The notes under the pieces are model-generated. The model ran no database searches. It saw nothing but the letters and a program-made list of their open reading frames with translations, and was not told the origin of the DNA. Source: Obrimoposthia wandeli (lineage: Eukaryota). From it: a stretch of DNA of 64,000 nt. A program made the position numbers and the translations under genes. Location of the stretch: assembly GCA_977020255.1 (NCBI GenBank), contig CDROCS010000953.1:124001-188000 (forward strand), written 5' to 3'. This document shows, one piece after another, positions 1 through 23,986 of the stretch (position 1 is its first letter; every line of letters begins with the position of its first letter).

Positions 1-395
1 TATTTTACTGCTAAACCTGCTCAAATGTAAAAATGTTAGTCGTAAAGAAATTTTTATACTTCGTAAATATTTTTGTCGATACCTGCGAGTCTACACATAT
101 GTTTAATTGTCAGTAGGTACTGAAGTTATATGGTAGCCTTCAGTTGATAGTGAATCGTGCTGAACTATCAGTCGCCACTGATAAATTGGATTCTCGCTTG
201 TAATCGACTTAACTTTTCCTTGTAACTCGTCAAATAAGCCATTACATTCCTATTCATTTTTCAAGTGTTAACTGAACAACTTGAAGGTCGTATATTTTTT
301 GCACTTTAGAAAATTACGATTTGATTCTGTTTTAAATTTATAATAAAAAAAAAAATTTCAGATCAGTTACATATGTTGGGAAAATCTTAAATATA

Positions 396-3392
396 TGTTG
401 GGAAAATATTATAGCTATTTATTTTAAAAAAATAAAAATATAAATATATATATAAAAAATTTAAAAAAATAAAAAGTAAAAAAGAATTAATTAACTAAAG
501 AATTAATTAAGAACTTTCCTTAATTAGGGAAAAGTTCTATTTAGAAAATATGCACTTTGGCATTTTAATCTCAAGATAAATCAATCTCCGACGGGAAAAA
601 AGTCCGTTTCGCCCTGCCAGGCTCATCAGGGAGATGGCTTGTTATCTCTGACTTCGCGGTGGATTCCGCGAAGCCAGAGATAACAATAATAAAAAGCCAG
701 GGAAAAGAGGGAAAGATTCCCCCTTTCATGTGCCGACGAATATCGTCGACATATGATGTAGGTGTGCGCAAGTGCACATTTCAATACACACACTCACACA
801 GCAGACATCACTCAACTCATTCACTCTCACTACTCACTCTTACTACTCACTCAATCGCTCACTAAATCACTTATTCACCCACTCTCCCTACTCACTCACT
901 CCCCTATCCATTGTGCACATGTGTGTGAGTATGGGACAATAATAATTTAATAATTCTCTCTGCCAGATTTCTTACCGTGGTCTGAACAGCTGGTGTGTGT
1001 GCTGTTTTGGACTGGGCAACAGGCAGAGATTCTGCACAGGGGACTAGTCCAGTGTGTGTGTCCCCACAGCCGCAGCTGTCTCCCTCATTGCATATTGCGG
1101 TGTTTGTGTGCGCGGATGTGCCAATCTCGCGGTTCCTGCCGTCTCTCTATCTTATTTGACCGGTCCAACAATGTGACAATCTCTAGCGGTTGCTGTTTTC
1201 TTCTGCCCGCGTTGTATCAGTTGCTACCGACATTTGTGATTGCTATTGTTGGGGTTTCTATATGAAACTCTGTTCTAATATAGATCCTCTTTAGTGGAGG
1301 GCCCCAACGTGAGTTCTATAGAAGCAGGTCTTAGGGATGGTTGTGGCCTACTTAATGTTATGCTTGCCTGTCTCAATTTTTATCTGAAGGTTTTTTGTTG
1401 TGTCTTAATCTGAAGGGTTTAGAACGATGCTTTCTAGTTGTAGGAAATCGTTTATTTATTAACACACTAGACTAACACGAATCAAGTACGTATTTCTAAA
1501 AAGTTACAATAAAATTCCTAAGACTTCTGTAAGTCTCTACACAAGTGGGGATGATCCACGTATCGATTTTAATTTTAGGGTTGAAGGTTTAAAAAGTCTT
1601 TCTAGTATTTGGTGATTGCACAAAATCAAAACTTGCTCTAATTTATGTAAAAAAAAATTTCTAGTAAATTAACGATTACAAACTTGCTCTAAAACTTGCT
1701 CTAATTTATAGAGGCTTTCAATTCAAATTATATGATATCAAATTTTACGATACCAAATTTATATATTTATCAAATTGTACGATATCCAATTTATAAATTA
1801 CGGCTCAAAACTTTCAAAATCGACTTCCAAATTGCTATTTTAATCAAGTTATAAATTCTCCAAAATCGGCTTCACAATTACTTATTTAAAATCACGTTCT
1901 ACTTTTATTTCCGCGCTTGTTCCTTACCTGGCGTCCGGTCTATATTGGCCTCCTCAGATGTCGGTCGAATCCTTTACTCGGTACCCTTGACGTGCTGTGA
2001 TCGCACTGTACGGTTCTCGCTCTGGGTGATTCTGACGGTCTCTCCTCGCTTTTAGTTGTACTTCTTCTTTGTTTTCGCTTTTTGCTTCTCTTGATCTGGT
2101 TGCTCGGAATCTATCGCCGAGTTTTTCTTTAACAAATTGTCGCTCTTGATTGGGGTGCTCGGAATCTATCGCCGAGACTTACTTTAACAAATTGTCGCTC
2201 TTGATTTGGGTACTCGGAATCTATCGCCGAGACTTTCCTTAACAAATTTCCGCTCGGATTTAATCACGAGTCTTTCTGATTCCAACTTTCGGCAAAATAA
2301 TAACTGCTACTGCTAAATTTAATAATAATTTAGACTTATATAGTCTAAATTTCTCGTGGTGTGTCGCTGTCACTCGAATTTCCTTCCTTCTCTTCTTACG
2401 GTCCTGCAAGGCAATGATTAATCGATCTGATTACTAATCGACACTCACCCCACGAAACAGCTGTTGCTTCTATTTTCTTGTGTGTGTCTGCTAAATTCCA
2501 CTCTCGACCGAGATAAGCGACTGTGTGTCCGCGAGCAATAATCCTCTTGTCGGCTGGTGATTCACGATGGGCAGAGATTTCTGACAGTTGACCTTAATTG
2601 TGTGATGAATAATTCAATCAATTTCTAATATCACCTTACTTCCTGGGTGACTCACGATGATTCACTGTTGCTGCTGCGTCGCGAGATTTCTGACGTTTGA
2701 CCTTAATTCTTGTTGAATAATTCAGTCAATTGCTAATATTACCTTAATTCTTGTTCTTCTTCTATTTCTTAATTAATTTTTTGGTCCTTTTTAATTTAAC
2801 TTTAACTTCCTTATATACAACACATTGAACATGACCTTTCAAGGTCCTAAATATTTAATTTGCCTTTTACTCTCATCGATTTATTTTAACAATATAATTT
2901 TTTATTTAATTTATAACCTTACTTTCACGGATTTTATTTTGATATAAATTAGATTAATTATTTAAAATATATCAAATCCTAATCCTAACACTATAAATAG
3001 CAACCATGGAACAAATTATAGACACAAATAAATCAGAAATTGGAATTGTCAAATAAATCAGAAATTGGAATTGTCAAGTAAATCAGAAATTGGAATTGTC
3101 AAATTGAAACTTTATATATTTTGCACAAATATTATTATTGTTAAAGTAAATCAGAAATTGGAATTGTCAAATTGAAACTTTATATATTTTGCACAAATAT
3201 TATTATTGTTAAAGCAAATCAGAAATTGGAATTGTCAAATTGAAACTTTATATATTTTGCACAAATATTATTATTGTTAAAACAGATCAGAAATCAGAAA
3301 TTATCCTGTTGAAACTATAAATATTGAATAACCAAAATGTTTATGATTGAAATCTGAAATAAATATTATTTGTTGCTGTGGTCTTATTAACA
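396..3392 (+). repeat. 5' LTR of family A element (~1.25 kb), interrupted by a solo LTR at 1247..2990
   Basis: 396..1246 plus 2995..3392 aligns with the 3' LTR 15496..16733 and is nearly identical from ~625 onward. Confidence 0.95.
1247..2990. mobile_element. Solo LTR of a second family (B), inserted in the 5' LTR
   Basis: TGTTGGGG...CCTAACA termini, TSD CTAT (1243-1246 and 2991-2994); absent from the 3' LTR; internal ~50-bp tandem repeats. Confidence 0.92.
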
Positions 3393-3393
3393 T

Positions 3394-3407
3394 TGGTAAG
3401 CCCGACC
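3394..3407 (+). promoter_or_regulatory. Primer-binding-site-like sequence TGGTAAGCCCGACC
   Basis: Starts with TGG one base after the 5' LTR end; loosely resembles a tRNA-Trp-type PBS (TGGTGACCCCGAC); cognate tRNA not verified. Confidence 0.7.
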
Positions 3408-3464
3408 AAGGAACACGGTTAGTACTTAATTTTTCTTACTAATTTATTTCATATTTTATCTTAC

Positions 3465-3903
3465 ATAGTATCTTGTATTTTTGGACTATTTTGTCTTATA
3501 ATTAACTAGAATTTATAAACCTTAATTGTATTGTACTATAGTATCTTGTATTTTTGGACTATTTTGTCTTATAATTAACTAGAATTTATAAACCTTAATT
3601 GTATTGTACTATAGTATCTTGTATTTTTGGACTATTTTGTCTTATAATTAACTAGAATTTATAAACCCTAATTGTATTGTACTATAGTATCTTGTATTTT
3701 TGGACTATTTTGTCTTATAATTAACTAGAATTTATAAACCCTAATTGTATTGTACTATAGTATCTTGTATTTTTTGGACTATTTTGTCTTATATTTTAAC
3801 TAGAATTTATAAACCCTAATTGTATTGTACTATAGTATCTTGTACTTTTGGACTATTTTGTCTTATAGAACTTATAATTTACTAGAATTTATAAACCCTA
3901 ATT
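3465..3903 (+). repeat. 73-bp tandem array (~6 copies) in the element's 5' leader
   Basis: Unit ATAGTATCTTGTATTTTTGGAC... recurs at 3465, 3538, 3611, 3684, 3757 and 3832. Confidence 0.95.
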
Positions 3904-5187
3904 TTGTTCCAAAGTAAATATATAGATAATTTGGAGCATAATTTGTATCCTTCGTTTAATTTGATTTTAGTGAATATATTTAAAAAAATATATATATATA
4001 ATAATAGTTTTATTAAACATCTGTTTCATTTTGAGTAGCATTTTAATTTAACTGATAAATTTAGTTTTGAAAGGTTTTTCTTTTGTTTATATAAAACAAA
4101 TTTTGTTTATTTCAGGGGAAGTTATAGTATTTAGCACTTTGTTAATTTTTAAAACAGAAAGTATATTTTCTGTATTATATTTAAAATATATAGTGTTTTC
4201 ATACAATATTATACAATAAGTGTAGAATATAGTATAGGATTGGATATAGAAGACTGATTTTTCTAAGAATATTTAAAATTCTCGAATAAAATACGTTAGA
4301 CTAAATACTTTATTGAGTCCGATAGCAAATAAGTACTGTGAAGGAAAGTTGAAAATAACTTTAAGAAGGAGTTAATTGGTGCGTGAAATAGCTTAGAGGT
4401 AAAATTAACAAATTTTCATAGTTTTTTTTAAAGCAATAGTTTTTGATTCAAAATTATCCTGTGTTTGACTAAAATATATTAAATAATTTACCTTAACATA
4501 ATTTAAATTACTAAATTTACAATATTAGTTTTTTAAAAAAAAAAAATAATAATAATAAAAAAATTGCGATAGCAGATTTGACTTAAGGATATATATTGAT
4601 AGGTTAGAAATTTTTCTATTACTTTGGTTGGAATTACAGCTCAAATCACGGTAATCGATTATCATAAGGCCGAGCTGTATTTTGATCACAGAGCAGAGAT
4701 AATTCCTGACTGTTTTTAAAAATTCATTTATTTAAATAAAAAATTTTATTTAATCGTTTTCAATAAAACTAGACAACAATATATAAACACATAAATTAAT
4801 TTTCGACCCAGTACGCAGGATAATAGTGAACAATACACAAAGATTTCAAAATCTAAACGTAGTGCTAATCTTCACTGGAGACGCATTCAAACTAGATTAG
4901 TAAGAACTAACACAAGTGAAACACTACCACAGAGACCTAAATCCCAGATAAATTTTAGAACAAATAACGAATTTTTCCCTGAAACTCCGTTAGTTCACCA
5001 ACACACGGATCGCTTAATTTCAACCGACTCTGAAAACCAAAACCTAACATCAAATTCGGATACAGAAAGTTTATCCTTACCACAAACATCTGACTCAGAC
5101 AACTCGTCAGAAACATCAGAAACAGTGGCAGAACCAGTACCACCTAACATAGAAATAAATAACGAACAAATAAACGAAGTACCTCAA

Positions 5188-6642
5188 ATGGCAAATCATA
5201 GATTAAACATACCACTAGACGCATTTAATGGCGATAAATCATCTTTACCAGAATTCTTGAATAGATATGATTCTTTTGCTCAAGCATTCGAATGAACAGA
5301 CCTAGAAAAACTTAGAGTTTTTCCAGCATACCTAAAAGGCACTGCCCTAACCATTTATAGAGGACTAACAAATCTGCAAAAAGACACATGGGAACACTTA
5401 GTCCAACATTTCCAAAATATGGTTTTAGGAGCACAGGTCGACCAGAACTACTTAAATCAATTTAGACAACGAGAGCAACATGTAGGAGAACCCACAAATA
5501 TATTCGCAGTCGAATTACGACGACTTGCATTAAAATCTTTTCTCGAAATAGAAGAAGCACAAAGAGAACGATTACTTTTACATCAATTTTTACATGGATT
5601 AAATAACAAAATTAGAGATCACCCTGCATTACTAGAAGTAGAAAACTTTCAACAGGCTATAGGAAAAGCTCAGCTAGTAGAAGCAAGACTGAATATGATA
5701 CAGCAAACCGAAGTTTCAGCATTATCTTTTGAAAAAATAGAACGACCACAAACGCCACCAAACTACAACCAATCTAGGAATTTTAACCAAGATACTCAAT
5801 ATAATTTTCAAAATCCTCAACAATTTAGACCACCAATAAATAATTTTTATAGAAACCAGACAAATAGAAATTTTGCAAACTCACAATTTACACAAAGATC
5901 TTTTCAAAAATGCACAAATTGTGGACTCCAAAATCATACAATAGAAAATTGTCGAAAATTAAGTAACATAAAATTTTGCAGATTTTGCAAAAAAGACAAT
6001 CACACAATTGAAATTTGTAGAAAATTAATAAATAGACAGAGTAATAATACACTACCAAGGAATAATAACTTCAATAAACCAAACAATTTTGACAATAATC
6101 AAAATAGATATTTTAATAACGATACAAAATTTTGTAAGATTTGTAATATGAAAAATCACAACACCGATGACTGTGGAAAATTAAACACAATGATGAATCA
6201 ATTTGGAAACACAACAATAAAACAGCAACCACAAGTTCAAAAAACAGTACAATTCAGTACTCAAGATCGACAATATACCCCAAAAAACCCTATTCACACT
6301 ATAGAAAATACAGAAACAACTCCAAACACAGACGAATTAGCATTGTTAAAATTACGACTTAAAGAAATGGATAATCGCTACAGAGAAATACACCAACAAT
6401 GCCATAACAGTGAACCACAAACAGATAGAACAAACTTACAATCCGAATTTGGAGACATGTTTAGAGATGGTTGTTTGACATTACAAAAAAATAAATATAC
6501 AATCACAAAAACAAACCAAACTACTCAAACACAAGAAAAGAAAGTAAAACACAAGAAAAAACGTAAAACACTAAAAAATCTGAAAACTAAAATTTTTAAA
6601 AATACAAATAATCTTAATAAAATGATGAAAAAATTATGGAAA
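5188..6642 (+). pseudogene. gag: Gag (capsid-like region plus three CX2CX4HX4C zinc knuckles)
   Basis: Frame open from 4795, ATG at 5188; retrotransposon-gag-like helix pattern (EFLNRY...QAFE*TDLEKLRVFPAYLKGTA) with TGA at 5293 where Trp would fit; knuckles at 5911, 5977 and 6133. Confidence 0.88.
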
Positions 6643-8510
6643 ATTATTCATATAATATTAATAATATTTCTAATTATGAACATGATAAAACCAATTAATG
6701 CTTTAGAAGCATATGATTGTTCAAAATATAAAATTCAAAATAAATATTCTTTAATGGATTTACAGCAATGTGCAGACGCTGACCCAAATGAGGTAAAAAC
6801 CCAAAATACTAAGTTGTATCAAGTATATCAGGAAACAGATTTCATATATGAAGAAGTTTTCGAATGTAGATAACATGTAGAGACATTTATAACATATTGT
6901 GGACAACATAGTCACAATTCAATAGTAAAACCAGCATTAGGAAAAACACCAATAATAGTTGACGCTTTAAATTGTAAAGATGCTTTCGCAACAGGAGAAT
7001 TGAGAATAGATAGAGAAATTAAAGTCCGAGCGGCGAAAAATAAAATAATTCAACAAATGATATCAGTTGTAGGTACGAATTAATCTGATGGAGAATGTAC
7101 AACAGGAACTTATGTCGTAATGGGAGTTAAGCAAAGTGGTTTAGTAGTTATTAAAAATTTTGATGTCGAACTAAGAACTTTCAAAGCAACATTCGACCCT
7201 TCCACAAACACAATGGTAACAATGCCATTTTGTGAAGCAAACATAGGTCACTGTAACACAGGTTCTTCAATACTTTACTACAAAATAAAAATGGATCAAT
7301 GTAAATTAATACATTTAAAATCAGAAACTTTTCAAATAATTCAAGGAAAAAGATTTAGAGATGATCCGGAACTAGATCAACAAATTCCAAAGGACATACG
7401 CAAAAAATATAGAACTAGAAAAATACGAAAAACACCAACTCCAACTATATTAATGTCTATTGAACAAGGTTCAGGAATGCGATTTATTAAAAAGAAAGAG
7501 GAATCCCGATGTGGACACTCTGTTTATACAACTAATTATAAAGGAATATATTTAAGTAATGAAAAAATACATAATGCAAAAACGACACCAACTAAATTTG
7601 ATATTAAAAATTATGATTATTTTAACAATAAATTAGATTATTTTTATCACAAAGGACTAATGACAATAGAAGCAATATATAGAGAAACCATAATGAATGA
7701 TTGTAAATTAAATCAGGAAATATTAAAAAAGAAATTGGCAATTATTGCTACTTACCCAGAATTAATAACACCATTATTACCATTAGCTGACGGTACTTTT
7801 GGAAGAGTAATGGGAGAAGTGTTATACACTTATCAATGTAAAAAAGTAATAGTTAACATAAGAAATCACCAAAAATGTACAAAAGAATTACCAATTTCTT
7901 ACAAAAATAATTCATTATTTGTAGAACCAATCACTAGAATCATACTTTTTAACACATTTAGCATTAAAGAAATAAACTGCTCAAACATAATGGCACCTCA
8001 TTATCAAATTTCAAAAGATATTTGGATTTCACTTCCAAGAAGAGATATTGTCGCAGAACCACAAAAATTACAATTAACCACTCTCAGCAACGACATCAAT
8101 ATACAATCAGATAACGAATTAAACACAAAAGGAATTTATATACAGGAAGATATAGATAAGTTAAGAAAATAAATTTTATTTCCACAAATAAGATCCAGAA
8201 TTTTAACACAAATCATAGAAAGATCAGTACCTGACGGAATTAGCCGTCCCGATTACGATTTATTACTTTCTCCAAATCATTTTATAAAAGCCACTAAAAA
8301 CACTATGTCAAAAATATGGGGAAAATTTTTAATTTTTGGACAAGCATTTTCTGGATTAGTTGGAATATATGCTCTATTAATTTGCTTTAAGATTCTTCTA
8401 AGTCAAATTTTATCAACATATTATATTTATAAAGTTGGAGGATTAACATGGAAATTAATCTTAGGATGTTTCCCATTTTTGGCAAAATTCCTTATTTTTA
8501 ATCATCATCA
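6643..8510 (+). pseudogene. Chuvirus-like fusion glycoprotein (env) with internal signal peptide, in frame between Gag and protease
   Basis: Signal-like IIHIILIIFLIMNMIKPINA|LEAYDC; motifs AYDC, YCG-HS, DGEC, YFNNKLDY, DC-L...P, GEV--YQC--V-V-IR, C--ELPI, EP-TRI, GIY--ED---LR--ILFP and W-KF--FG--SG-VG-Y match the chuvirus-type G pattern as I recognise it; TAA stops at 6871, 7081 and 8170 do not change the frame. Confidence 0.8.
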
Positions 8511-8689
8511 AAACATAGTAAACACATTATCAAATGAAATGCGAGAAACAAATATACAAAAAATTACAAGTACCAAAGGAACAGAAAAAACGGAATCTTC
8601 ACAATATCCTGATTTAGAAAAATATATAGATAAAACAACTATACAAAAACCATCTGCACCAACAATATATACAATAAATCAAAAAGATA

Positions 8690-11600
8690 ACGACAAACGA
8701 CCATATGTAAAAGTAGAAATTAACGAATATAAACTTAAAGCTTTAATTGACACAGGATCAAGCGTAACAGTTTTAGACGAATCTTTCTTAAAAACACAAC
8801 AAAAATTACTTCTTCTTAAGGAAAATAGTCAAGTCACAGCAGCAAACGGTCAACCCGTAAATATAATAGGAAAATTAGACTGTCTTTTTAAAATAGGAAA
8901 TAAATTCATAAAAATACCTACAAGAATAATGAAAAATTGTCCTTGCCAAATGATCATAGGAATAGATACATTAAAAAAATTAGGAAATAATTTCCACTTT
9001 GATTTTGAAAAAAATCAAATAAAAGACATTTACAGACCTAACGCCAAAGATGAATACGAGTTAGAAATAAAAGGAGATATCATTCTCCAACCAAGAACAG
9101 AAACAATGTTACAACTAGAAACTAACATAATCACGGAAAAAGATGTATTATTTGAGCCTTATAAATATCAACAAGAAACCTTGAACTACGTTTTGCCAAA
9201 TATAATTTGTAAAATAAAGAACAACACAATACCAATCAGAATCCTAAATGCAGACATTAATGAAATTCATCTCAAGGAAGGAGTACGTCTTGGGAAAATA
9301 AGTGTTATTGAAAATATTGAATTAATAGATAATGAAAAAATAGAAGATAAATCTACGATAAATTTTAACGATATCAAATTAAATGATTATGAAAAATCAA
9401 AACTTAAAACTTTAACAGAAAAATATGATGTAATATTTGCTAAAAATGAATACGATTTAGGTCGAACAAATTTGATAAAACATAATCTTCCGTTAACAAC
9501 AAACACAGCAATAAAACAACGACCCTACCGAATTCCATATGCCTACAGAGATGAGGCTCAAAGACAAATAAAAGGAATGTTAGAAAATGAAATTGTTAGA
9601 AGAAGTTTTTCTGCATGGACATCATCTGTTGTTTTAGTAAAAAAGAAAGATGGTTCTTTGAGATTTTGCGTAGACTACAGAAAACTAAACGAAGTCACTC
9701 ACAAAGATACTTATCCACTGCCAAGAATTGATGAAATATTAGACAAACTAAAAAATGCACAAGTATTTACAACTTTAGATTTACAGAGTGGATACTGGCA
9801 AATAGAAATTGAGGAGTCAGATAAATATAAAACAGCTTTCTCAACAGGAGAAGGATTGTATGAATTCAATGTCTTACCATTTGGATTAACCGGAGCTCCA
9901 GCAACATTTCAGAGATGTATGAGCCATATTTTAATGGATGCAGATCACGTAATGGTATATATCGACGACATTCTTATTTTTTCAAAAAATTTGAAGAACA
10001 TTTAAAAGATTTAGAAAACGTATTCTTAAGATTACAGGTAGCAGGATTAAAACTAAAACCAAAGAAATGTGAATGGATAAAAGATAAAGTAAATTACTTA
10101 GGACATGCTGTATCAGCAAAAGGAATACAACCAGACGAGAGTAATGTAGAAAAGATTAAAAATTTTCCAATCCCAAAAACAGTAAAAAATATACAGGAAT
10201 TTTTAGGGCTTGCAGGATATTATCGTAGATTTATTAGAAATTTCGCACAAATAGCAATACCATTAAATAAACTTATTAAAAAAGATGAAAAATTTGAATG
10301 GGAAAAAGAACAACAAGAATCTTATGAATATTTAAAACAAAAATTAATCGAAAAACCTATACTTAGATATCCTAATTTTAATAACTCATTTTTAGTTATG
10401 ACTGACGCCAGTGGTTATGCGTTAGGAGCAGTTTTAGGACAACAGGAAAATAACGAAAAAGATCATGTGATAGCATATGCGAGCAGAGGTCTTAAAAAAC
10501 ATGAAAAGAATTACTCAACGATAGAAAGAGAATGCCTAGCTATTTGCTTCGCAATGGAACATTTTAAACATTACTTATTAGGTCGAAAGGTTTATGTTTA
10601 CACAGATCAAAGACCATTACAATGGCTTTTAAATCATAAGGATACAACATCTAGATTAATGAGATGGGCATTGATTTTACAAAAATATGATATTGAAATA
10701 AAATATCGAAAAGGAAAATCTAACGCTAATGCAGATTGTCTATCACGAATAAGAGAAGAAATAAACGAAATAACTGCAAACGACATCGAATTAAATCTTT
10801 TTACAATAATTCAAGCTAAATATGATGAAAAAGTAATTACTAAACTTCAAAGCAAAGATAATGAAATTCAGCAAATAACTAAATACATTAGCACAAACGA
10901 AGTACCAACAGATGAAAAATTAAGAAAACATTTAAAAATTCACGAATCACGATACAAATATAGTAATGAAATATTATATTATTTAAATGACAAAAATCTA
11001 TATTCACTAGTTATTCCTAAAGAAATTCAGTGTCAATTACTTCTTCAATATCATAATGGAGCCCTAGGAGGACATTTATCATCAAAAAAGACACATTCAC
11101 GATTAAATTTAAAATACTATTGGATTGACATGAAAGAAGATGTAAAAAATTGGTGTAAAACATGTGAAATATGTCTTAAACGGAAAAATACTTTACGTAC
11201 CACAAAAATACCTTTAAAACCAATACCTTATCCATCAGCCCCCATGGAAACTGTTGCCATGGATGTAATGGGACCATTACCTGAAACACCCCGAGGAAAT
11301 CGATATATAATAGTATTTTCTGATTATTTTACAAGATGGCCAGATACTTTTCCAACACATGATCATAAGGCTGAAACCATCGCAAAGGTTTTAGTCGAAA
11401 AAATTATTTTTACTTTCGGTGCACCCCGAAAATTATTTACCGACAAAGGTCCTGAATTTATAAATAATGTATTAGCGTCAATAGCTGAAATTTTTCACAT
11501 AAAAAAGATCAATACAACACCATATCACCCTCAAACTGACGGGTTAGTAGAAAGATTTAATAGAACCCTCGAAGATATGATGGCATCATACACAAACAAC

Positions 11601-12130
11601 AACCAAACAGATTGGGATTTACACATACCTCCATGCCTTTTTGCATATAGAACATCAGTACATGCATCCACAGGAGAAACACCTTTTTATCTTATGTTCC
11701 TCAGAGATCCTCAAATGCCTAATGACCTAACATTACTACAACCTACTACACAATATTTAGAAATACCTGAATATAAAATAGAAATTAGAGAAAGAATAAA
11801 ACTAGCATTCGAAAAAGCTAAACTATTTGTAAAAAACATACAAGAAAATTACAAAGAATATAATGATAGAAGAACTAAGCCATCAAATATAAAAAGCGGA
11901 AGTAAAGTGATGATTCACAATCCACAAATTAATGTAGGATTGTCTCACAAATTATCAAAACCATACAAAGGACCATATACAGTCATTAGTACCAACGGAA
12001 CCAACATAACAGCTAAACTAGATAATGAACCAAAATCAAAAGAAATAAGAGCACATATAAACAGATGTCGAGAAATACCTGAGGAGAATACAAAAGTAAA
12101 AAGTCACAAATATAACTTAAGATCAACTAA
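8690..12130 (+). pseudogene. pol: Pol: aspartic protease, RT, RNase H, integrase with GPY/F module; 1-nt deletion frameshift near 9990
   Basis: LIDTGS at 8743-8760; YIDD at 9958-9969; TDASGYALGAVL, TDQRPL and NANADCLSR (RNase H); H-H-C-C finger, AMDVMG, TDKGPEF and ERFNRTL (integrase); KPYKGPY; FSKN/FEEHL is broken by one missing T. Confidence 0.95.
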
Positions 12131-12245
12131 TGATAATACAGTTCTACAAATGTTGACAATAAAAAACTCACAAAAACAAAATAAAACTATTTTGAGTCAT
12201 CAAACCAGAAATACAATAAAAATATCAATAAAAGAAATTGGTAAA

Positions 12246-13423
12246 ATAACGATGTTATTGATAATATATTTTATAATAAAATATAACCTACTGAAAGTAA
12301 ACGCAACAAACATAAATGACAATCAATTAATCATACAACAACAAACAAATAAATACGACTCAACAACTCATCTCATAAAAAATTTTGGATTAATAACAAT
12401 AATACCTGAAATCACATCAATAAAGTTAAAAATTTCTCTTCTTACAAACAAAACAGGAAATGTGCAAATCACACAAACAGATAGAAAACAAAATATAATT
12501 ATTTCAGGAATAAAATCACAAAAATATACAATACCATTTTTAAGAACAGAAACACAATATAAAATAAGAATTAAGTCGAAATTAAAAAATATAACACTCT
12601 ATGAAAGAATTATAGAAACTCACATATACCTAGCATCAATATTAAAAACAACAGCAAATATATATCAAAACATAAAATAATAATAAAATGGGAATTTCAA
12701 CTAAAAATAGATGACTTAGATAAAGCCCTCATTAGAATTAGATATAGAAGACATAATGCTAATTTTTGGAAAGACTCAGAAAAACAATTAGAAAATACAC
12801 AAACTAAAACAAATTTAACCATAGAAAATATAAGATATCCAGAGAAAATAATAATGGACAATAGAGAATGCGTAATCACTAATAAACCAATAATGTACAG
12901 ACAATGGAGTCAAAAGTTTGAAAGTTATAAAAATCTAACAAAATTAACAATTTTAGGAAATAAGATATCCAAACTATATCAACCTACAATTTTTTGTGGT
13001 CGTTGGTCAGCAATAAAAATTAAGAAATATGTTAAAGAAATAACCACAAAACAAATGCTACATACCACAACATTTACATCAAAAATTTACAGAGTTACAA
13101 ATCAAGTTGAAATCACGGAGAGAATAAGAATTAAATTAAAATTAAAAACAACAGAAACAATATCCTATAAATCATTTAATGAAAGTTTAAAAATGCACTA
13201 TGGTAAACAAGAACATTCAAGGAATGAAGATAAAAAAGAACTTATAATAATAGTTATAGTAATCGAAATAATTACATTTTTAAATCAAATATCATGGAGA
13301 ATGTTAATTTTGAAACATACAAAAATGATAGAAACAAAACAACGAAAACACTTTTGTGGCCCCCCAGGCCCTTTTACTATTTATATTTTCCCAAGGATGA
13401 GAATTCTTCGGAATTATCCATAA
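12246..13423 (+). pseudogene. Putative type I membrane protein with FN3-like repeats, fused in frame after integrase (frameshift ~12625)
   Basis: Signal-like ITMLLIIYFIIKYNLLKVNA|T; FN3-like motifs KYTIPFLRTETQYKIRIKS and KIIIKWEF...IRIRYRRHNANFWK...TNLTIENI; hydrophobic LIIIVIVIEIITFL at ~13241; removing 2 nt from ATATA (12624-12628) joins the frames. Confidence 0.45.
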
Positions 13424-13660
13424 ATACTGTAATAGAAAATAGGAAAAGAAATATAACACAATAATCAATTTTTTTAAAAAATAAAACCATTTAAGTAACA
13501 AAAAATGTTAGTACTATTAAGTAAATCTAAATTAGTTAGGAAATAGAATAAAAATTTGATATATGTATATTTTAAAGAGGATTTAATGAAAATAATATTA
13601 AAATAAAATAACCAGGAAACGCATCCTGAAATTTAATAATGGTTATTTTTAGATATAAAA

Positions 13661-13957
13661 ATGAACAGATTGGCAAAAGTTTGTAAAAAATGCAAAAAAT
13701 TAGAGAAAAAGATTCGAGATGTTTCCAGACAGCATGACGACTTCTATATAAAGATCACAACTCAAAATAAATCACTGAAACAGTTAATAAAACAAAGTGT
13801 GGAAGAAAAATTGAATAATGATTTAACAATTGACGAACTAGAAGGGAGATTGACACATAGTTTTGGCAGAATAGACTATTTAATACAACAAACTTTAAGT
13901 CAACGATCAACTATAGCCTCATTAAGAAGACAAATGATGACCTTTGTTAAACTATAA
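13661..13957 (+). CDS. Accessory ORF, 98 aa, probably coiled-coil, unknown function
   Basis: Clean ATG-initiated ORF (AAAATG) inside the LTR boundaries, with heptad-like charged/hydrophobic pattern. Confidence 0.45.
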   Translation: MNRLAKVCKKCKKLEKKIRDVSRQHDDFYIKITTQNKSLKQLIKQSVEEKLNNDLTIDELEGRLTHSFGRIDYLIQQTLSQRSTIASLRRQMMTFVKL

Positions 13958-14117
13958 CCATACATCCTTCTTTTGTACAAATTGTCTAACTTTTATTAAT
14001 AGATTTATTTTCATGACAAATCCCACATACTGCATGGATAAGACTGATATTTTTATAACTTTAAGACTGTGAAATAATTATATTATTTTATTCAACTAAC
14101 AAATTGATTAAAGCAGA

Positions 14118-14381
14118 ATGGATAACAATCACCTGGATACGACTCCAGACCAGCTCACTCGGTTAGATCAAACAAAAAGCACAGCAAAAATAGAAAGAGG
14201 AAAAACGGAAAATATGCCAGAAAGGTGGTATTTAGCAAAATTCCTGTATCAAAAGATGCGTCAGTTTAGCATTGCATACTTTAGAAACAACGGAGGAAGA
14301 AAAATGTTTTCAAATCAAACATTTCTTCCTAATAAGTTAAAAATTACCACAGAGGAAAGAACAAGCGCACTTATATTTTAA
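14118..14381 (+). CDS. Accessory ORF, 87 aa, unknown function; possibly a frameshifted N-terminus of the exonuclease
   Basis: ATG-initiated ORF; overlaps the upstream open frame (from 14336) of the exonuclease ORF. Confidence 0.35.
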   Translation: MDNNHLDTTPDQLTRLDQTKSTAKIERGKTENMPERWYLAKFLYQKMRQFSIAYFRNNGGRKMFSNQTFLPNKLKITTEERTSALIF

Positions 14382-14401
14382 ATGAAAAAAGACCAACCCA
14401 T

Positions 14402-15286
14402 ATGGCTCTCAGCGAAATATTCCCCATTAATAATAGTGAAAAAATAGATATTCACGTGGCACTAGGAGTGGCCCATTTAAAAACCAAATCAGATAAGACC
14501 TTAAACTTTCTGATGATAGGAAATCATACCTACACCTTACAAGCAGCACAATTAGAAAATCAATATAGCATAAAAATAGGAAGAGGACCAAATCTATTAT
14601 TTATAGAAAAAATAAGAAAAGCAGAAGAACCTCAACAAATAGCCCTTTTTGAATTAAAAAACGCACAGAAACCAGCAATTTTATTCCTCGATTGCGAAAT
14701 GGTGATATCAGTAGATAAACAGCCAGTTTTAGCAAGTGTTTCTATTATAAATTACATAGGTAACGTAATTATAGATACACTGTGCGTAACTAGAGACAGA
14801 GTAAGAAATTACGTTACTAGAATAACTGGACTGTCAGATAGAAAGTTACAAGGATGTAGAGATGCTGATGAAGTAATTGAGGAAGTAAAAAACATTGTGT
14901 ATGGTAACATCATCGTAGGTGTGGGACTAACAAACGATTTAAAAGCTTTACGCCTACAGAAATGGATGTTATTCAACATTGTTGATTTAGGAATATCTAA
15001 AAGCATAAAATCAGAACTAAATCACAATCACCCAAATATTGGACTTGCCAACATGGTGCGGAAATACTTAAATATAGAAACACAAAAAGGAGTCCACACT
15101 AGCATGGAAGATGCAAATCACACCCGAAAAATTTTCATAATGAAGGAGGAAATGTTGAATAGAGAGTTTGATTTGACCGAGGTGATGAATCCACCATCTA
15201 GCGAGAACAACCCCAGTTCATCGTTCTCACATAAGACCGGAAACTCGGAGTCCGGTACACAAAACTCCCCGATTTTGTTGGATTAA
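14402..15286 (+). CDS. DEDDh 3'-5' exonuclease, REX4/ISG20-like, carried inside the retrotransposon
   Basis: ExoI LDCEMV, LASVSII, RNYVTRITGL, ExoII VG--LTNDLKAL and ExoIII QKGVHTSMEDA; all D-E-D-H-D catalytic positions present; uninterrupted 294-aa ORF. Confidence 0.9.
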   Translation: MALSEIFPINNSEKIDIHVALGVAHLKTKSDKTLNFLMIGNHTYTLQAAQLENQYSIKIGRGPNLLFIEKIRKAEEPQQIALFELKNAQKPAILFLDCEMVISVDKQPVLASVSIINYIGNVIIDTLCVTRDRVRNYVTRITGLSDRKLQGCRDADEVIEEVKNIVYGNIIVGVGLTNDLKALRLQKWMLFNIVDLGISKSIKSELNHNHPNIGLANMVRKYLNIETQKGVHTSMEDANHTRKIFIMKEEMLNREFDLTEVMNPPSSENNPSSSFSHKTGNSESGTQNSPILLD

Positions 15287-15488
15287 GGTAGTATTGTTAT
15301 TATTTTATTCTGTTTTCATTCTTGTCTAAATTTTTAACGATATTTAACCAGACATGATTGTGATTAATAAAACATTAATCAGTTATAACATACAAACAAC
15401 ACTAGGTAACAATAGAAACAAGACAAAATAGTTTTACTAATAATTAAGATAAAAATTATAATTCTGAGGACAGAGACTTTTATGACCC

Positions 15489-15494
15489 GGAGGA
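15489..15494 (+). promoter_or_regulatory. Short polypurine-tract candidate (GGAGGA)
   Basis: Purine run ending 1 nt before the 3' LTR start; short, so only positional support. Confidence 0.4.
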
Positions 15495-15495
15495 T

Positions 15496-16733
15496 TGTTG
15501 GGAAAATATATTAGCTATTTGTTTAAAAAAGAAAAATAAAAATATAAAAATTAAAAAAAAAAAAAATAAAAGGTAAAAAGGAATTAATTAACTGAAAATT
15601 AATTGGGAACTTTCCTTAATTAGGGAAAAGTTCTGATTTTAAAATGTGCACTTTGGCATTTTGTCTAATCAATCTCCGACGGGAAAAAAGCCCGTTTCGC
15701 CCTTCCGGGCTCATCAGGGAGATGGCTTGTTATCTCTGACTTCGCGGTGGATTCCGCGAAGCCAGAGATAACAATAATAAAAAGCCAGGGAAAAGAGGGA
15801 AAGATTCCCCCTTTCATGTGCCGACGAATATCGTCGACATATGATGTAGGTGTGCGCAAGTGCACATTTCAATACACACACTCACACAGCAGACATCACT
15901 CAACTCATTCACTCTCACTACTCACTCTTACTACTCACTCAATCGCTCACTAAATCACTTATTCACCCACTCTCCCTACTCACTCACTCCCCTATCCATT
16001 GTGCACATGTGTGTGAGTATGGGACAATAATAATTTAATAATTCTCTCTGCCCAGATTTCTTACCGTGGTCTGAACAGCTGGTGTGTGTGCTGTTTTGGA
16101 CTGGGCAACAGGCAGAGATTCTGCACAGGGGACTAGTCCAGTGTGTGTGTCCCCACAGCCGCAGCTGTCTCCCTCATTGCATATTGCGGTGTTTGTGTGC
16201 GCGGATGTGCCAATCTCGCGGTCCCTGCCGTCTCTCTATCTTATTTGACCGGTCCAACAATGTGACAATCTCTAGCGGTTGCTGTTTTCTTCTGCCCGCG
16301 TTGTATCAGTTGCTACCGACATTTGTGATTGCTATAAATAGCAACCATGGAACAAATTATAGACACAAATAAATCAGAAATTGGAATTGTCAAATAAATC
16401 AGAAATTGGAATTGTCAAGTAAATCAGAAATTGGAATTGTCAAATTGAAACTTTATATATTTTGCACAAATATTATTATTGTTAAAGTAAATCAGAAATT
16501 GGAATTGTCAAATTGAAACTTTATATATTTTGCACAAATATTATTATTGTTAAAGCAAATCAGAAATTGGAATTGTCAAATTGAAACTTTATATATTTTG
16601 CACAAATATTATTATTGTTAAAACAGATCAGAAATCAGAAATTATCCTGTTGAAACTATAAATATTGAATAACCAAAATGTTTATGATTGAAATCTGAAA
16701 TAAATATTATTTGTTGCTGTGGTCTTATTAACA
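15496..16733 (+). repeat. 3' LTR of family A element
   Basis: Direct repeat of the 5' LTR, TG...CA, followed by the TSD TATA; contains 25-bp x3 and 68-bp x3 tandem units near its 3' end. Confidence 0.95.
16331..16340 (+). promoter_or_regulatory. Putative LTR TATA box (CTATAAATAG); counterpart at 2991..3000
   Basis: TATAAATA consensus followed ~35 nt later by AATAAA-containing repeats, as expected near the U3/R boundary. Confidence 0.5.
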
Positions 16734-16737
16734 TATA

Positions 16738-17668
16738 TATGAAAAAATAAAAGATATAAAATTAAGAAAAAATGGGAATTAATTAATTAATGAATTAATT
16801 AAGAACTTTCCTTAATTAGGGAAAAGTTCTGATTAAATAAAATATGCACTTTGGCTATTTGGTTTGGAGTGCTATTTCGCCCTGCTGGGCTCTTCAGAGA
16901 GATGGCTTGTCTTTGACTTCACTGTGGATTCCGCGAAGCCAGAGATAACAATGATAGACAGTGAAAAGAAGGAAAGATTTCTCCCTTTTAATATGCCGAC
17001 GAATATCGTCGACATGTGATGTTGGTGTGCGCAAGTGCACAATTCAACACACACACACAACAGAAATTGCATACACCTACTCACTCACTAGTACTCAAAT
17101 CTTTCTAACTCACTGCTCATTCACTATGGTTGGAGTATATGTCTGTATGTGTGTGAGATTAATATATTATTTATCTCTGCCCAGATACGCTGCCTCAGTG
17201 TGTTTACGTGCCGGGGATCGACTGGTGCAGAGACTAAATGCATGGATTTCCGGCCTGTTAATTGGCACTGATTTATTATTTTTTCTGTATAAAAACAAAT
17301 CGCCATTACAAAAATTCAGAACCAAAAAAATTATTACTAAATTAATCTGAATCGCAGTTATATTTAGAGACAGTATCGCAAATTATTATTTGAAAGCAGA
17401 ATTTACAATTTAAATTGATATACCAGTTATATTTGGAGACAGAATTTACAAAATTTACAATTTATATTTGAAAGCAAAATTTATAATTTATATTTGAAAG
17501 CAGAATTTACGATATAAATTTGAAAACAGAATTTACATTTATATTTGAAAAAATCGCAAATTATTATTTGAAAGCAGAATTTACAATTTAAATTGATATA
17601 CCAAGAATATATTATTTGTCCACAAAGTTTTTGTTATTGTTTAGGTAGATATACCCTAACTTAATACA
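16738..17668 (+). mobile_element. Older diverged family-A LTR, split by the full-length element (its first 22 nt are at 374..395)
   Basis: 374 TGTTGGGAAAAT start; 16738 onward shares the AGAACTTTCCTTAATTAGGGAAAAGTTCT palindrome and GGATTCCGCGAAGCCAGAGATAACAA; probable end TAATACA at 17668 with flanks CATA/TATA (1 mismatch). Confidence 0.75.
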
Positions 17669-18194: not shown

Positions 18195-19590
18195 TGTTAG
18201 TATTATAATTTTAAAATAAAATAAAAATAAAATTAAAAATTTTTAATTATTTCTTAATTAAGAAATAACGGGAGAAAATTTCCTTAATTAGGGAAATGTT
18301 ATTTCGGGTAAGTGAAATGCACTTTGGCATTTTGTAATCTGTTTTATTAGTTCAGTCCCCGACCGGCTTAACCGGTTTTGCCCTGTCGGGCTCGTCAGGG
18401 GAACGGCAGATTTATCTCTGGCTTCGTGGTGGGCAAAAATGCCCGCGAAATAAGAGATAAAAAAGGAGAAAATAAACAAAGGCACTTACCTGCACAAAGT
18501 CATATAAGTTGTGCAGCGCCGCCCTCCACTATCCTGATGTTAGCCACATCTATTTGATGTCATGCATCAATCCACAATGNNNNNNNNNNNNNNNNNNNNN
18601 NNNNNNNNNNNNNNNNNNNNNNNNNNNNNNNNNNNNNNNNNNNNNNNNNNNNNNNNNNNNNNNNNNNNNNNNNNNNNNNNNNNNNNNNNNNNNNNNNNNN
18701 NNNNNNNNNNNNNNNNNNNNNNNNNNNNNNNNNNNNNNNNNNNNNNNNNNNNNNNNNNNNNNNNNNNNNNNNNNNNNNNNNNNNNNNNNNNNNNNNNNNN
18801 NNNNNNNNNNNNNNNNNNNNNNNNNNNNNNNNNNNNNNNNNNNNNNNNNNNNNNNNNNNNNNNNNNNNNNNNNNNNNNNNNNNNNNNNNNNNNNNNNNNN
18901 NNNNNNNNNNNNNNNNNNNNNNNNNNNNNNNNNNNNNNNNNNNNNNNNNNNNNNNNNNNNNNNNNNNNNNNNNNNNNNNNNNNNNNNNNNNNNNNNNNNN
19001 NNNNNNNNNNNNNNNNNNNNNNNNNNNNNNNNNNNNNNNNNNNNNNNNNNNNNNNNNNNNNNNNNNNNNNNNNNNNNNNNNNNNNNNNNNNNNNNNNNNN
19101 NNNNNNNNNNNNNNNNNNNNNNNNNNNNNNNNNNNNNNNNNNNNNNNNNNNNNNNNNNNNNNNNNNNNNNNNNNNNNNNNNNNNNNNNNNNNNNNNNNNN
19201 NNNTTATCGACAAATGTTGTCTCTCTCCCTCTTTGCTACTGCGGCGCATTCAATACACCTGATACTGCATGCCAGGTTTTCGTGAACCAGCTCCTCTGTC
19301 GCCGTGTCGGATCTCCTCTCTTACCTTCAGATGCCACTAGCAGCTGGGACAACTTCATAGCATGACAGCATGTGCAGTCTCTCCAGCTGCAACAACATAT
19401 CTCTCTCAATCTGTGTCTCTATAACCACAGTTTCTGCACATCGCCCTCCAACTGTCCGGATGAAAATTGATTTTTATGTGTTTGTGTCTATCTGTATTTA
19501 TTAGTATATATGCAGAGATGCATATAAAAATAAGGACACAAGAATTATACAGGACAAAAAATATAATAATCTGATCAGAAAAATTGATCT
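18195..19590 (+). mobile_element. Diverged family-A LTR spanning the assembly gap; 3' end uncertain
   Basis: TGTTAG start, TTTCCTTAATTAGGGAAA palindrome, ATGCACTTTGGCATTTT and hairpin variant shared with LTR A. Confidence 0.6.
18580..19203. other. Assembly gap (624 N)
   Basis: Run of N. Confidence 1.
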
Positions 19591-19596
19591 AATATT

Positions 19597-20420
19597 TGTT
19601 GAAAATTATTCAATTATCGAAAAATACAATTTAGTTATTTATTTGTAACTTATCATAAGTATGTTTTTCTGAAATACGAATATACACTCCAATTGAATTT
19701 TCTTTATTCGAATAAATTAATATACAAATTAGAATTATTACCTTGGTATGAAAGTGTTGGAATTTTAAAAATTAAAATTTTAAAATGAATTAAGTCAATT
19801 TAAATTGACATTACTGAAATGCCCACAATCTTGGAGGTATTCTTTTTCAGCCTCCGACGAGGTAAAAACCCCGTTTCGACTTGACAGGCTCATCCGGAAG
19901 GCGGCTTTATAAAAGTGTTAATACAGAGATTTTTCCACCCAGCAACATCAGCCTCTTTCCTCCATCATACATCCAGTGCGGCGAAATCATCATCATCCAT
20001 ACAGCGAAATCATCGTCATCAATTCTATCTCTCGCTCATGGAATCCCATTCAAAAATCTATTACAGCAGCCACCAAATGTCAAAGTCACCAATCCAGGCG
20101 TGTAATCGGGGATTTACTTGGTGCTGTTCTTTAGACGATTTTCGGTGATAGACGATTAATTAAGCCTGATATAAATATAAACCGTTTCGTTTCTGATATT
20201 ATAGAAAAGTTTTACAGTTGATATATACTAGAATATAGAATTTTGAATAGATTTGTATTTGGAATTCCCTTTAATTACAGGTGAACCATTAATTTTTGAG
20301 AATACAAATTATTGTTGGATAATATCAGAAACAATATCATTTAATCCGGAAACTATTAACATTTGAAAAACAAATTATTAATGGATATTATTAGAAACAG
20401 TATTCAGATGTTGTCAACCA
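19597..20420 (+). mobile_element. Further diverged family-A-like solo LTR
   Basis: CTCCGACGAGGTAAAAACCCGTTTCG...GGCTCATC resembles LTR A; TGTTG...CAACCA with candidate TSD TATT on both sides. Confidence 0.5.
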
Positions 20421-22414: not shown

Positions 22415-22620
22415 GTAAGTCCTAGTTATTTTTTATAATATAATCACGTTATTAAAAATTGATTTAAACATGCAATATATTTAAATTTTTTAAAAATTCC
22501 TGCAAATTAAAGTAAAGGATTTGTTATGATATCTCTAATATTCATAATTTATTCTAAAGTAGAAAACTTAAAGTTTCTGGAAGAGTTTACACCTTTTTTG
22601 ATATTGAACCATACACGCAG

Positions 22621-22971
22621 GTACCAGGTATCAACGTACCATTTTCTCACATGGGTTTTCTCATTAGTTCCATTATAATTGCCGGAATTGTGCATGAAAT
22701 GGGCCACGCCATTGCCGCAATCAAAGAAGGAGTTCGAGTTGACGGCTTTGGACTGATTTTCTTTGTTGTCTATCCGGGCGCTTTCACTAACATCAACACT
22801 GGGGATCTGGAGAGTCTGGATCCAACCCGGAAATTGAGGATATTCTCAGCAGGCAACTGGCACAATTTTGTCACCCTCGTTATTGGGTTTGGTCTCCTGA
22901 ATGTGTTGCCTGTTCTGTTACTGCCATTCTACTCTACAGGGAATGGAGTTCTTGTCAACTACCTCAGTCAG
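22621..22971 (+). CDS. MBTPS2: Site-2 protease exon 2 (HEXXH)
   Basis: Acceptor CAG at 22620; VPGINVP, VHEMGH, YPGAF, LRIFSAGNWHNF and LLPFY are S2P motifs; donor GT at 22972. Confidence 0.92.
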
Positions 22972-23986
22972 GTTGTTTGTTGCTGTGATTCACCCATAAC
23001 ACCAATTGAAACTGCAGTTCGCTACAGACATTTCTTTAATCAACTACCTTTAATCTGGACACAAAACCCACACCAAAGAAAAATAAAATCCATAATAATA
23101 ATTAAATATTTACTTTAAGCCATTAAATTATTCATTTAGTGTCGTTCTGCCTAGGCATACAAGTTGTATAGATAATAGAGGATTATTTTCAATGTCACTT
23201 TCTTTATTGCTATCTCACACCAATGTTATTGAGTGTACTTTTAATTATATTTGGATATATTATAAGCAAGGAAGTGATAATCTATTACACTATTACATAG
23301 TGTAGTGAATTGAGCTTTGTTCTTCGTATAATATGATCCGGTTTTACCAAACAGTTTAAATGTTAAACTTAAAGTATTTTGTAGTAATCCAATCAATATT
23401 CATCAAGCTTTTCATATTTGCTGTTACAATGCAATTTAGAGGAAATTCTTTATGCATTGTAACTATTAAAAATACCATTAGTAGATCTAACATTGAACCA
23501 TCAGTACCATCACTACACTAAAATGTTTTCCTTTTTACCAGCTGATGTAGCTTAGATTTTTTTTCACCGACAACATTTATGGGTCAGTTTATTTGTTAAT
23601 TAACTTTGTAAAATATTTTCAGTTAATATTATTTATCCTACGGGTTATGTACAACTTTTGTATTTATATTTCCAGTTTGATGGTAGTTTCTGTCCAACAG
23701 ATGTCTTCGCATAAATAGATGAGATCAACTTGAAATAACTCCAAAATCATCCTGAGCCTTCAAACAGATTCAGAGGGTTAAGAAAATAGAGTACTTTGAG
23801 TAGCAAGAATACTTAAAGTTAAAAAATTCCTAAAATTCTTGTGGCTACATATTTTGTATTTACTCATTTTTCTCAAATGTATAGGTTACTAAATCTACAT
23901 TAAAGTTGATTTTTGAAAAATTAATGCTTTAAATGTGTCAACCGTACTGAGACTTTTCAACAACTTATTATTGGACATGTCTACAG

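Follow-up and report, generated by a model that had tools for sequence, protein, structure and literature searches.

A compact flatworm-type GAG-ENV-POL element in Obrimoposthia wandeli with membrane proteins on both sides of its enzymes

One reading frame from Gag to a second membrane protein

The stretch of DNA analysed here (the window) comprises 64,000 nucleotides of the Obrimoposthia wandeli genome (assembly GCA_977020255.1, contig CDROCS010000953.1, positions 124,001 to 188,000 of the forward strand), and coordinates are counted from its first letter. A decayed Ty3/gypsy long terminal repeat (LTR) element spans positions 396-16733 and, without a 1.74-kb insert, measures ~14.6 kb. This copy of the element is dead. 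Its main coding region is one interrupted frame in which a glycoprotein (G) lies between Gag and the protease (PR), followed by reverse transcriptase (RT), RNase H (RH), integrase (IN) and a second membrane protein (M2). The parts of this frame are as follows (TM, transmembrane helix):

5188..6621, plus strand: Gag, with a capsid-like region, CCHC-type knuckles at 5911-5952, 5977-6018 and 6133-6174, and a basic linker; stop at 5293
6622..6702, plus strand: internal signal 1, with a basic N-flank, a hydrophobic core (hydropathy 2.05) and an INA end; cleavage predicted
6703..8325, plus strand: G ectodomain, a putative class III (gB/Monjiviricetes-type) fusogen matching PF24664; stops at 6871, 7081 and 8170
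8326..8502, plus strand: G membrane anchor, with a TM at ~8344-8400 and a second, weaker hydrophobic helix at 8443-8499
8692..8988, plus strand: aspartic protease, DTG at 8749; PF00077, PF13975
9637..10688, plus strand: reverse transcriptase and RNase H; PF00078, PF17917, PF17919; frameshift at ~9990
11013..12100, plus strand: integrase (H2C2, core and C-terminal region); PF17921, PF00665
12222..12305, plus strand: internal signal 2, with a VNA end; cleavage predicted
12306..13234, plus strand: M2 ectodomain, likely FN3-type; frameshift at ~12640
13235..13423, plus strand: M2 TM (13235-13312, hydropathy 2.21) and short tail

A first-pass annotation made from the letters of this DNA had placed the open reading frames (ORFs) at 5419, 7120 and 8305 in one frame broken by isolated stops. 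We find the ATGs at 5188, 5419, 7120 and 8305 in one frame and locate four stops, at 5293, 6871, 7081 and 8170. From the ATG at 5188 to ~9990 this frame holds Gag, the helix ending in INA, the glycoprotein, its TM, the DTG protease and most of RT, so the colinearity read by that annotation stands, with the PF24664 match, the helices and the DTG motif all in frame. Past the frameshift at ~9990 the frame runs, as had also been described, through the rest of RT, RNase H and integrase into another hydrophobic helix, whose last residues are VNA (12305). The annotation had not mentioned a further frameshift, which lies at ~12640, upstream of the final TM.

Other copies of the family indicate that none of these breaks belongs to the element's design. 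A 601-bp probe drew 1,449 candidates from the genome (1.35 Gb), of which 40 were scored; the 39 other copies compared are those nearest to the window at the probe and hence a non-random sample. No uninterrupted frame was present in any of the 39 (the longest had 1,642 codons), and their 397 breaks are spread over all domains at 1.2-1.7 per kb, with the most-broken 30-nt bin hit in at most 10 of 37 copies. The six breaks of the window are open in 24/29, 35/35, 31/34, 26/37, 31/38 and 29/36 of the copies that cover them; none is fixed. One of 150 scored matches from a second genome search lies in an uninterrupted frame of 2,889 codons, in which G, PR, RT, RH and IN were confirmed in that order. 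From its first ATG, this natural copy counts 2,758 codons, close to the ~2,740 amino acids that the first-pass annotation had estimated for the repaired frame. That annotation's central claim, an env between gag and protease within one polyprotein, also holds in this copy and in three relatives described below. The frame ends at the equivalent of 13464 in 20 of 33 copies and at 13423, like the window, in 11 of 33. A programmed stop or frameshift at a domain junction was rejected, as at most 10 of 37 copies share a break at any one position.

Two further observations concern the breaks themselves. Among small indels in the 39 copies, 126 of 277 fall at homopolymers of at least 5 (background 12%), suggesting that some breaks may reflect slippage or assembly error. 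The stop at 8170-8172, just ahead of the G anchor, occurs in 10 of 37 family copies and in 3 of 18 copies of a sister subfamily. Besides this codon, none is stopped in more than 3 copies, and 35 of 8,142 sites are as variable. Because its carriers are no nearer to the window than other copies and its state is unlinked (best r2 0.2 vs a median of 0.6), we conclude that this stop arose repeatedly. The simplest reading is a mutation hot spot; alternatively, it could reflect selection for a secreted ectodomain, since a stop here would yield Gag plus a secreted ectodomain.

By its sequence, G is a Monjiviricetes/gB-type fusogen: it matches PF24664 (Monjiviricetes fusion protein) in three consecutive segments, at E values of 1e-7, 1e-39 and 2e-16, and all eight cysteines of its domain I/II region fall, by eye, in the motifs of Smed_errantivirus_1-6 (the flatworm C1a pattern). 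It is 41% identical to its counterpart in database protein P0002, whose Gag, which has a weak Ty3_capsid match and zf-CCHC, aligns with the window Gag at a BLASTP E of 1e-21. The nearest solved structure to the RT is that of Ty3 (E 1e-42), and assignment to BEL/Pao was rejected because only Ty3-type RT, RH and IN families were matched. The traits of Metaviridae are present: paired LTRs with TG...CA, a target-site duplication (TSD), a tRNA primer-binding site (PBS), the order PR-RT-RH-IN and a Ty3-like RT.

Compared with 20 copies of the sister subfamily, the ratio of nonsynonymous to synonymous substitution rates (dN/dS) is 0.06 for capsid, 0.07 for G, 0.01 for the G anchor, 0.07 for PR, 0.03 for RT and RH, and 0.05 for IN. 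The two halves of the M2 ectodomain have values of 0.22 and 0.40, the second half with few aligned sites, and the M2 TM gave no alignment in this comparison. Both membrane proteins are under purifying selection. The dN/dS values for G, together with a dS (0.75) like that of the neighbouring PR (0.74), argue that G is neither a nested insertion nor a relic. The first-pass annotation had raised the possibility of a nested G with its own TSD; no TSD or terminal repeats surround G in the window, and G occupies the same place in two subfamilies, in another family of this genome and in three relatives from metagenomes. The natural uninterrupted copy and the frames of the relatives likewise speak against the continuity being an accident of the window copy. 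We found nothing in favour of a nested insertion or an accidental continuity, and we give that explanation practically no weight.

The order gag-G-pol, for which a search beyond this genome had been suggested, recurs elsewhere. A metagenome scan yielded 6 loci from 94 candidates. Three of them carry uninterrupted frames of 3,184, 3,426 (5' end open) and 3,703 codons, in which G precedes PR-RT-RH-IN and the RT is 55-71% identical to that of the window family. Past the integrase, all three run into a signal, an ectodomain and a TM, and in two of the three an exonuclease ORF lies downstream. The remaining three loci comprise an incomplete gag-G contig, an ORF with G alone and one fragment, and no relative was found in viral contigs (0 of 38 candidates). 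A natural database protein of 2,713 amino acids has the layout Gag-BCL2-like-signal-G-TM-PR-PR-ankyrin. In the same genome as the window, a second, giant family has the same order, with frames of up to 5,301 codons and several hydrophobic segments after the integrase. A search of the genome with PF24664 returned this giant family only, in the 40 stretches fetched, and no M2 homologs from it. After its integrase, the giant family encodes a dual-specificity phosphatase, a degenerate second copy and, further on in that long frame, several segments that are signal-like or TM.

The second membrane protein and the threading of the frame

An FN3 fold is likely for the M2 ectodomain of the window family. 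The Atlas FN3 lead scores 0.87 for this M2 and 0.90 for the module of a relative; both are leads only. Five domains from the post-integrase modules of two relatives align mutually, and the AlphaFold model of a relative's domain is all-beta (pLDDT 76.8). With this model, the top rows returned by Foldseek were nearly all FN3 (best E 5e-3, prob 1.0; none at or below 0.001). A profile that included three domains of the window family and its sister matched 44 PDB sequences with a best E of 1.3e-3, compared to 0.22 without those three domains; we take all 44 to be FN3-containing proteins. The sister subfamily's M2 matches fn3 at an E of 0.07 only. Several results for the window family's own M2 weigh against this assignment, which for this family stands as a lead only. 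It had no match in Pfam, none in the PDB, and none among 1.84 billion representatives; a single-sequence AF2 model reached a pLDDT of 30 and gave no usable fold; and its alignment to the FN3-like domains of the relatives was not significant (hhalign probability 0.6%). A homolog search with a relative's M2 module recovered 0 of 6,047 candidates, and a PF00041 search of the genome listed host-like FN3 genes.

A role for M2 in attachment is quite possible, although we stop short of calling it likely. Less plausible still, and on balance unlikely, is that M2 is a captured host-receptor mimic or decoy acting on the producing cell, in signalling, localisation or adhesion, like the cargo of the planarian Burro elements. 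Such a role would suit the fast divergence of M2, which leaves no detectable similarity between the window family and the relatives, and the phosphatases and several post-integrase membrane segments of the co-resident giant family. It would also suit the S/T-x-hydrophobic, PDZ-type tails in which the frames of the three relatives end (TDL, TMV and TFV, which we take to be PDZ class I-like); the tail of the window family has no such end. Burro elements themselves gather regulatory cargo (PMC6431247). Against a decoy, the position of M2 and its layout of signal, ectodomain and TM are kept at an RT identity of 55-71% despite the turnover of sequence, a pattern that also fits a receptor-binding protein.

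The topology of the whole frame was assessed from hydropathy and an approximate insertion scale. The 30 residues preceding signal 1 contain 12 K/R and 0 D/E, the ratio of K/R to D/E before signal 2 is 5:1, and in both signals positions -1 and -3 are occupied by small residues. Across the four uninterrupted frames (the natural copy and the three relatives), the membrane segments upstream of the RT-proximal protease number 2, 2, 2 and 4 by the approximate scale, and a signal plus TM follows the integrase in 4 of 4. The frame with four upstream segments has a cassette between two protease domains that adds exactly one signal and one TM, with an FN3-like domain between them. In this relative, the extra cassette lies at its positions 4742-5300, and three DTG-type motifs are present. 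Paired segments are the pattern expected if the whole frame were threaded through the endoplasmic reticulum (ER) membrane with the enzymes kept cytosolic.

One interpretation of this pattern is the following. Gag would be made in the cytosol, after which signal 1 would send G into the lumen and be cleaved after INA. If transfer stops at the TM of G and the weaker helix behind it rests on the surface of the membrane, PR-RT-RH-IN would remain cytosolic. Signal 2 would then send M2 into the lumen and be cleaved after VNA, with the M2 TM as anchor. Host signal peptidase would cut on the luminal side and the element's PR on the cytosolic side, where it would free Gag from the signal-1 stub, Pol from the G tail and IN from the signal-2 stub. 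As all products would sit on one membrane, capsid and Pol would be placed where G and M2 gather, and particles could bud there. In this scheme M2 would assist the fusogen, likely as an FN3-type protein for adhesion or attachment. The structural polyproteins of alphaviruses and flaviviruses similarly alternate internal signals with stop-transfer helices and are cut by signal peptidase on the luminal side. The first-pass annotation had proposed processing of this kind; the paired membrane segments fit the signal-peptidase part of that proposal, and cleavage itself stays a prediction. The likeness is one of working principle without homology, as the window element is reverse-transcribing and integrating and its fusogen would be of class III, not class II. 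Overall, we consider it probable that the window element is a flatworm-type GAG-ENV-POL Ty3/gypsy element with Gag, a class III fusogen, PR-RT-RH-IN and a type I M2 in one frame, whose polyprotein passes through the ER membrane and is cleaved by signal peptidase and PR.

Several points count against this interpretation. The topology depends on hydropathy and an approximate scale, and the cleavages are predicted. The helix at 8443-8499 has a mean hydrophobicity of 0.61, compared to 0.59 for the TM of G, and a membrane-spanning helix at this place would put Pol in the lumen. In addition, the M2 ectodomain of one relative contains a marginal fifth segment. Finally, a 1:1:1 ratio of Gag, Env and Pol is unusual for Ortervirales, and hidden splicing or recoding could therefore be involved.

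The helix at 8443-8499 leads to an alternative in which it crosses the membrane as a second span after the G TM, or in which the signals stay uncleaved and serve as anchors; the layout would then be unlike that of alphaviruses. The helix is strongly conserved as well as hydrophobic, and gB-type ectodomains with two flanking TMs are described for some elements in PMC13524379. However, this helix contains two Lys and one Pro and scores +3.2 on the approximate scale, compared to ~0 for the TM, and RT and IN could not work in the lumen. We regard this alternative as improbable. Alternatively, the frame could be continuous while most G and M2 is made from RNAs that are spliced or start internally, or ribosomes could exit after Gag; the stoichiometry would then be conventional and the full polyprotein a minor product. 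Met codons just ahead of both signals would allow for this, Gag must normally be in large excess over Pol, and the leader and the 3' accessory ORFs need some non-canonical expression in any case. However, neither the 39 copies nor the relatives have a fixed stop or frameshift at the junctions, and strict pairing of membrane segments, even in the inserted cassette, is what full read-through would select. We therefore hold this explanation to be rather unlikely, though less so than an extra membrane span.

Termini, accessory frames and surroundings

The remaining features of the element, outside the polyprotein frame, are:

374..391, plus strand: start of an older related LTR, with a duplicated TGTTGGGAAAAT start; it continues after 16737, the element having inserted into it
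392..395 (left) and 16734-16737 (right), plus strand: target-site duplication TATA, from the sequence
396..3392, plus strand: 5' LTR (TG...CA), which holds the insert and matches the 3' LTR
1247..2990, no strand given: secondary insertion, solo-LTR-like (TG...CA), with a 4-bp TSD, CTAT
3394..3406, plus strand: primer-binding site, with one mismatch to the family's TGGTGAGCCCG site
3407..5187, plus strand: long leader with 73-bp tandem repeats; frame open from 4795 without an ATG
13640..13957, plus strand: accessory ORF 2, coiled-coil-like; 138 codons in 10 of 19 copies, shorter in the window
14112..15286, plus strand: accessory ORF 3, a DEDDh 3'-5' exonuclease (ISG20/REXO type) with an N-terminal extension; PF00929; frameshift at ~14350
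15496..16733, plus strand: 3' LTR (TG...CA), by sequence match to the 5' LTR

The two LTRs are 95.5% identical over 396-1246 and 15496-16335 and 100% identical over 2991-3393 and 16332-16734. An early part of the LTR (420-566 vs 15516-15662) is just 76% identical and the remainder 99-100%, for which a template switch or later recombination may be offered. Copies that are 97-98% identical in the coding region resemble the window in the LTR over its first 450-560 bp only (74-88%); further along, their LTR departs from that of the window, as does much of their leader, of which there are at least three types. TSDs of 4 bp flank other family copies too. Relics of older related LTRs lie around the element at 374-391, 16738-17200, 18201-18466 and 19874-19909; positions 16726-17114 are ~76% identical to the first 400 bp of the element's LTR. 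The element sits 18-22 bp inside one such relic, and this insertion may reflect targeting of its own kind.

Sequences complementary to the PBS were found in tRNA-like 3' ends at 48 genome matches, compared to 0 for a control; the tRNA is presumably tRNA-Trp. ARAGORN recognised no tRNA at the four PBS-complementary loci examined. Several of these tRNA-like ends are followed by CCA and LTR-like ends, and one is a 207-bp tandem array, and these places are likely to be products of primer read-through. Where a polypurine tract of about ten A/G would be expected before the 3' LTR, there is just a short purine run, which is kept among copies. The 131 codons ahead of the gag ATG (4795-5187) are open without an ATG, an ORF beginning at the equivalent of 4795 is listed for 20 of the 39 copies, and a similar stretch occurs in the sister subfamily; a non-AUG start or a spliced leader is possible.

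ORF 3 matches ISG20 at an E of 3e-9 and SDN1 at 3e-5. In 6 of 19 copies it forms a single ORF of 391-394 codons, and all three exonuclease motifs are found in 15 of 19. Elsewhere in the window, an exon-like frame with an HEMGH motif at 22558-23118 resembles site-2 protease and probably belongs to a host gene. A tandem array of ~134-bp units occupies 30278-31345, and further short arrays lie at 32-33.7 kb, 48.5 kb and 63.6 kb.

Relation to known elements

The first-pass annotation had called this architecture possibly undescribed. That claim does not survive, because the gag-env-pol order has been published (PMC6431247, PMC13524379). Planarian Burro elements encode polyproteins of 4,873-5,140 amino acids with an env that matches mononegavirus fusion glycoproteins, and were termed the first with an in-frame env between gag and pol (PMC6431247). 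The window element shares with Burro/GYPSM1 a single polyprotein, a Gag with three CCHC knuckles, an env in frame between gag and pol, and accessory ORFs. Burro elements, however, exceed 30 kb and carry BCL2, BIR, ankyrin, MATH, SUMO-like and dUTPase domains (PMC6431247), compared to ~14.6 kb and 2,758 codons here, and none of these six domains has a Pfam match in the window family's uninterrupted frame. For Burro, neither a membrane protein after the integrase nor an FN3 domain or an exonuclease is named in the review (PMC6431247).

Closer in size are the GAG-ENV-POL elements with a gB-type env that PMC13524379 describes from Platyhelminthes, Nematoda and Bryozoa, with Smed regions listed there at 14.5-18 kb. 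The window element has the same gag-env-pol order, Ty3/gypsy pol, gB-type env and cysteine motifs as these HSV/gB-type errantiviruses. The words 'polyprotein' and 'exonuclease' do not occur in the passages covered, nor does 'fibronectin' in the preprint; its figures or repository may show a C-terminal module. In the ICTV genus Errantivirus, taken in its strict (insect) sense, env is encoded downstream of integrase (PMC7879559). Unlike those, the window element has its fusogen between gag and PR, and after IN only M2. We thus place the window element in the flatworm-type GAG-ENV-POL group as a compact member, neither a Burro in size and cargo nor an ICTV Errantivirus. These relatives and the base composition, taken by themselves, would suggest a freshwater planarian as the likely host.

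An env before pol is also found in nematode non-canonical endogenous retroviruses (ERVs), as cited in PMC13524379. These differ from the window element in their hosts, which are nematodes. Sacco et al., in J Gen Virol in 2022, are said to have described nematode ERVs with a continuous gag-env-pro-pol ORF and extra ORFs. The rotifer LTR elements Vesta and Juno have an ORF3 exonuclease of DEDDy type (PMC5408684). They resemble the window element in having a 3' accessory ORF for a DEDD exonuclease, which in Vesta and Juno is DEDDy and RNase D-like, whereas ORF 3 is DEDDh and nearest to ISG20, ISG20L2 and SDN1.

In the literature, we found no description of an FN3 or second membrane protein after integrase, although the first-pass annotation had noted such a protein here, or of signal-peptidase processing of such frames; figures, supplements, RepBase and subscription papers may hold one. 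What seems new is the post-integrase module of signal, ectodomain and TM, the pairing of membrane segments, and the exonuclease, and not the headline order. We speculate, as a tentative and on balance doubtful proposal, that one polyprotein, cut by signal peptidase as in alphaviruses, supplies a two-protein entry apparatus consisting of a captured FN3 receptor-like attachment protein and a class III fusogen, that new surface modules can join only as cassettes of signal, ectodomain and TM, which leave Gag and Pol in the cytosol, and that the ISG20-like exonuclease counters small-RNA defence.

Single gag-env-pol frames are known but have so far only been catalogued, and the window family shows how such a frame could work. 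In distant relatives, too, an M2 follows the integrase despite the fast turnover of its sequence. Should M2 prove to be an attachment protein, the element would be a retroelement that splits receptor binding from fusion, as paramyxoviruses and herpesviruses do. If true, this would help to tell whether these very abundant elements move from cell to cell in animals rich in pluripotent stem cells.

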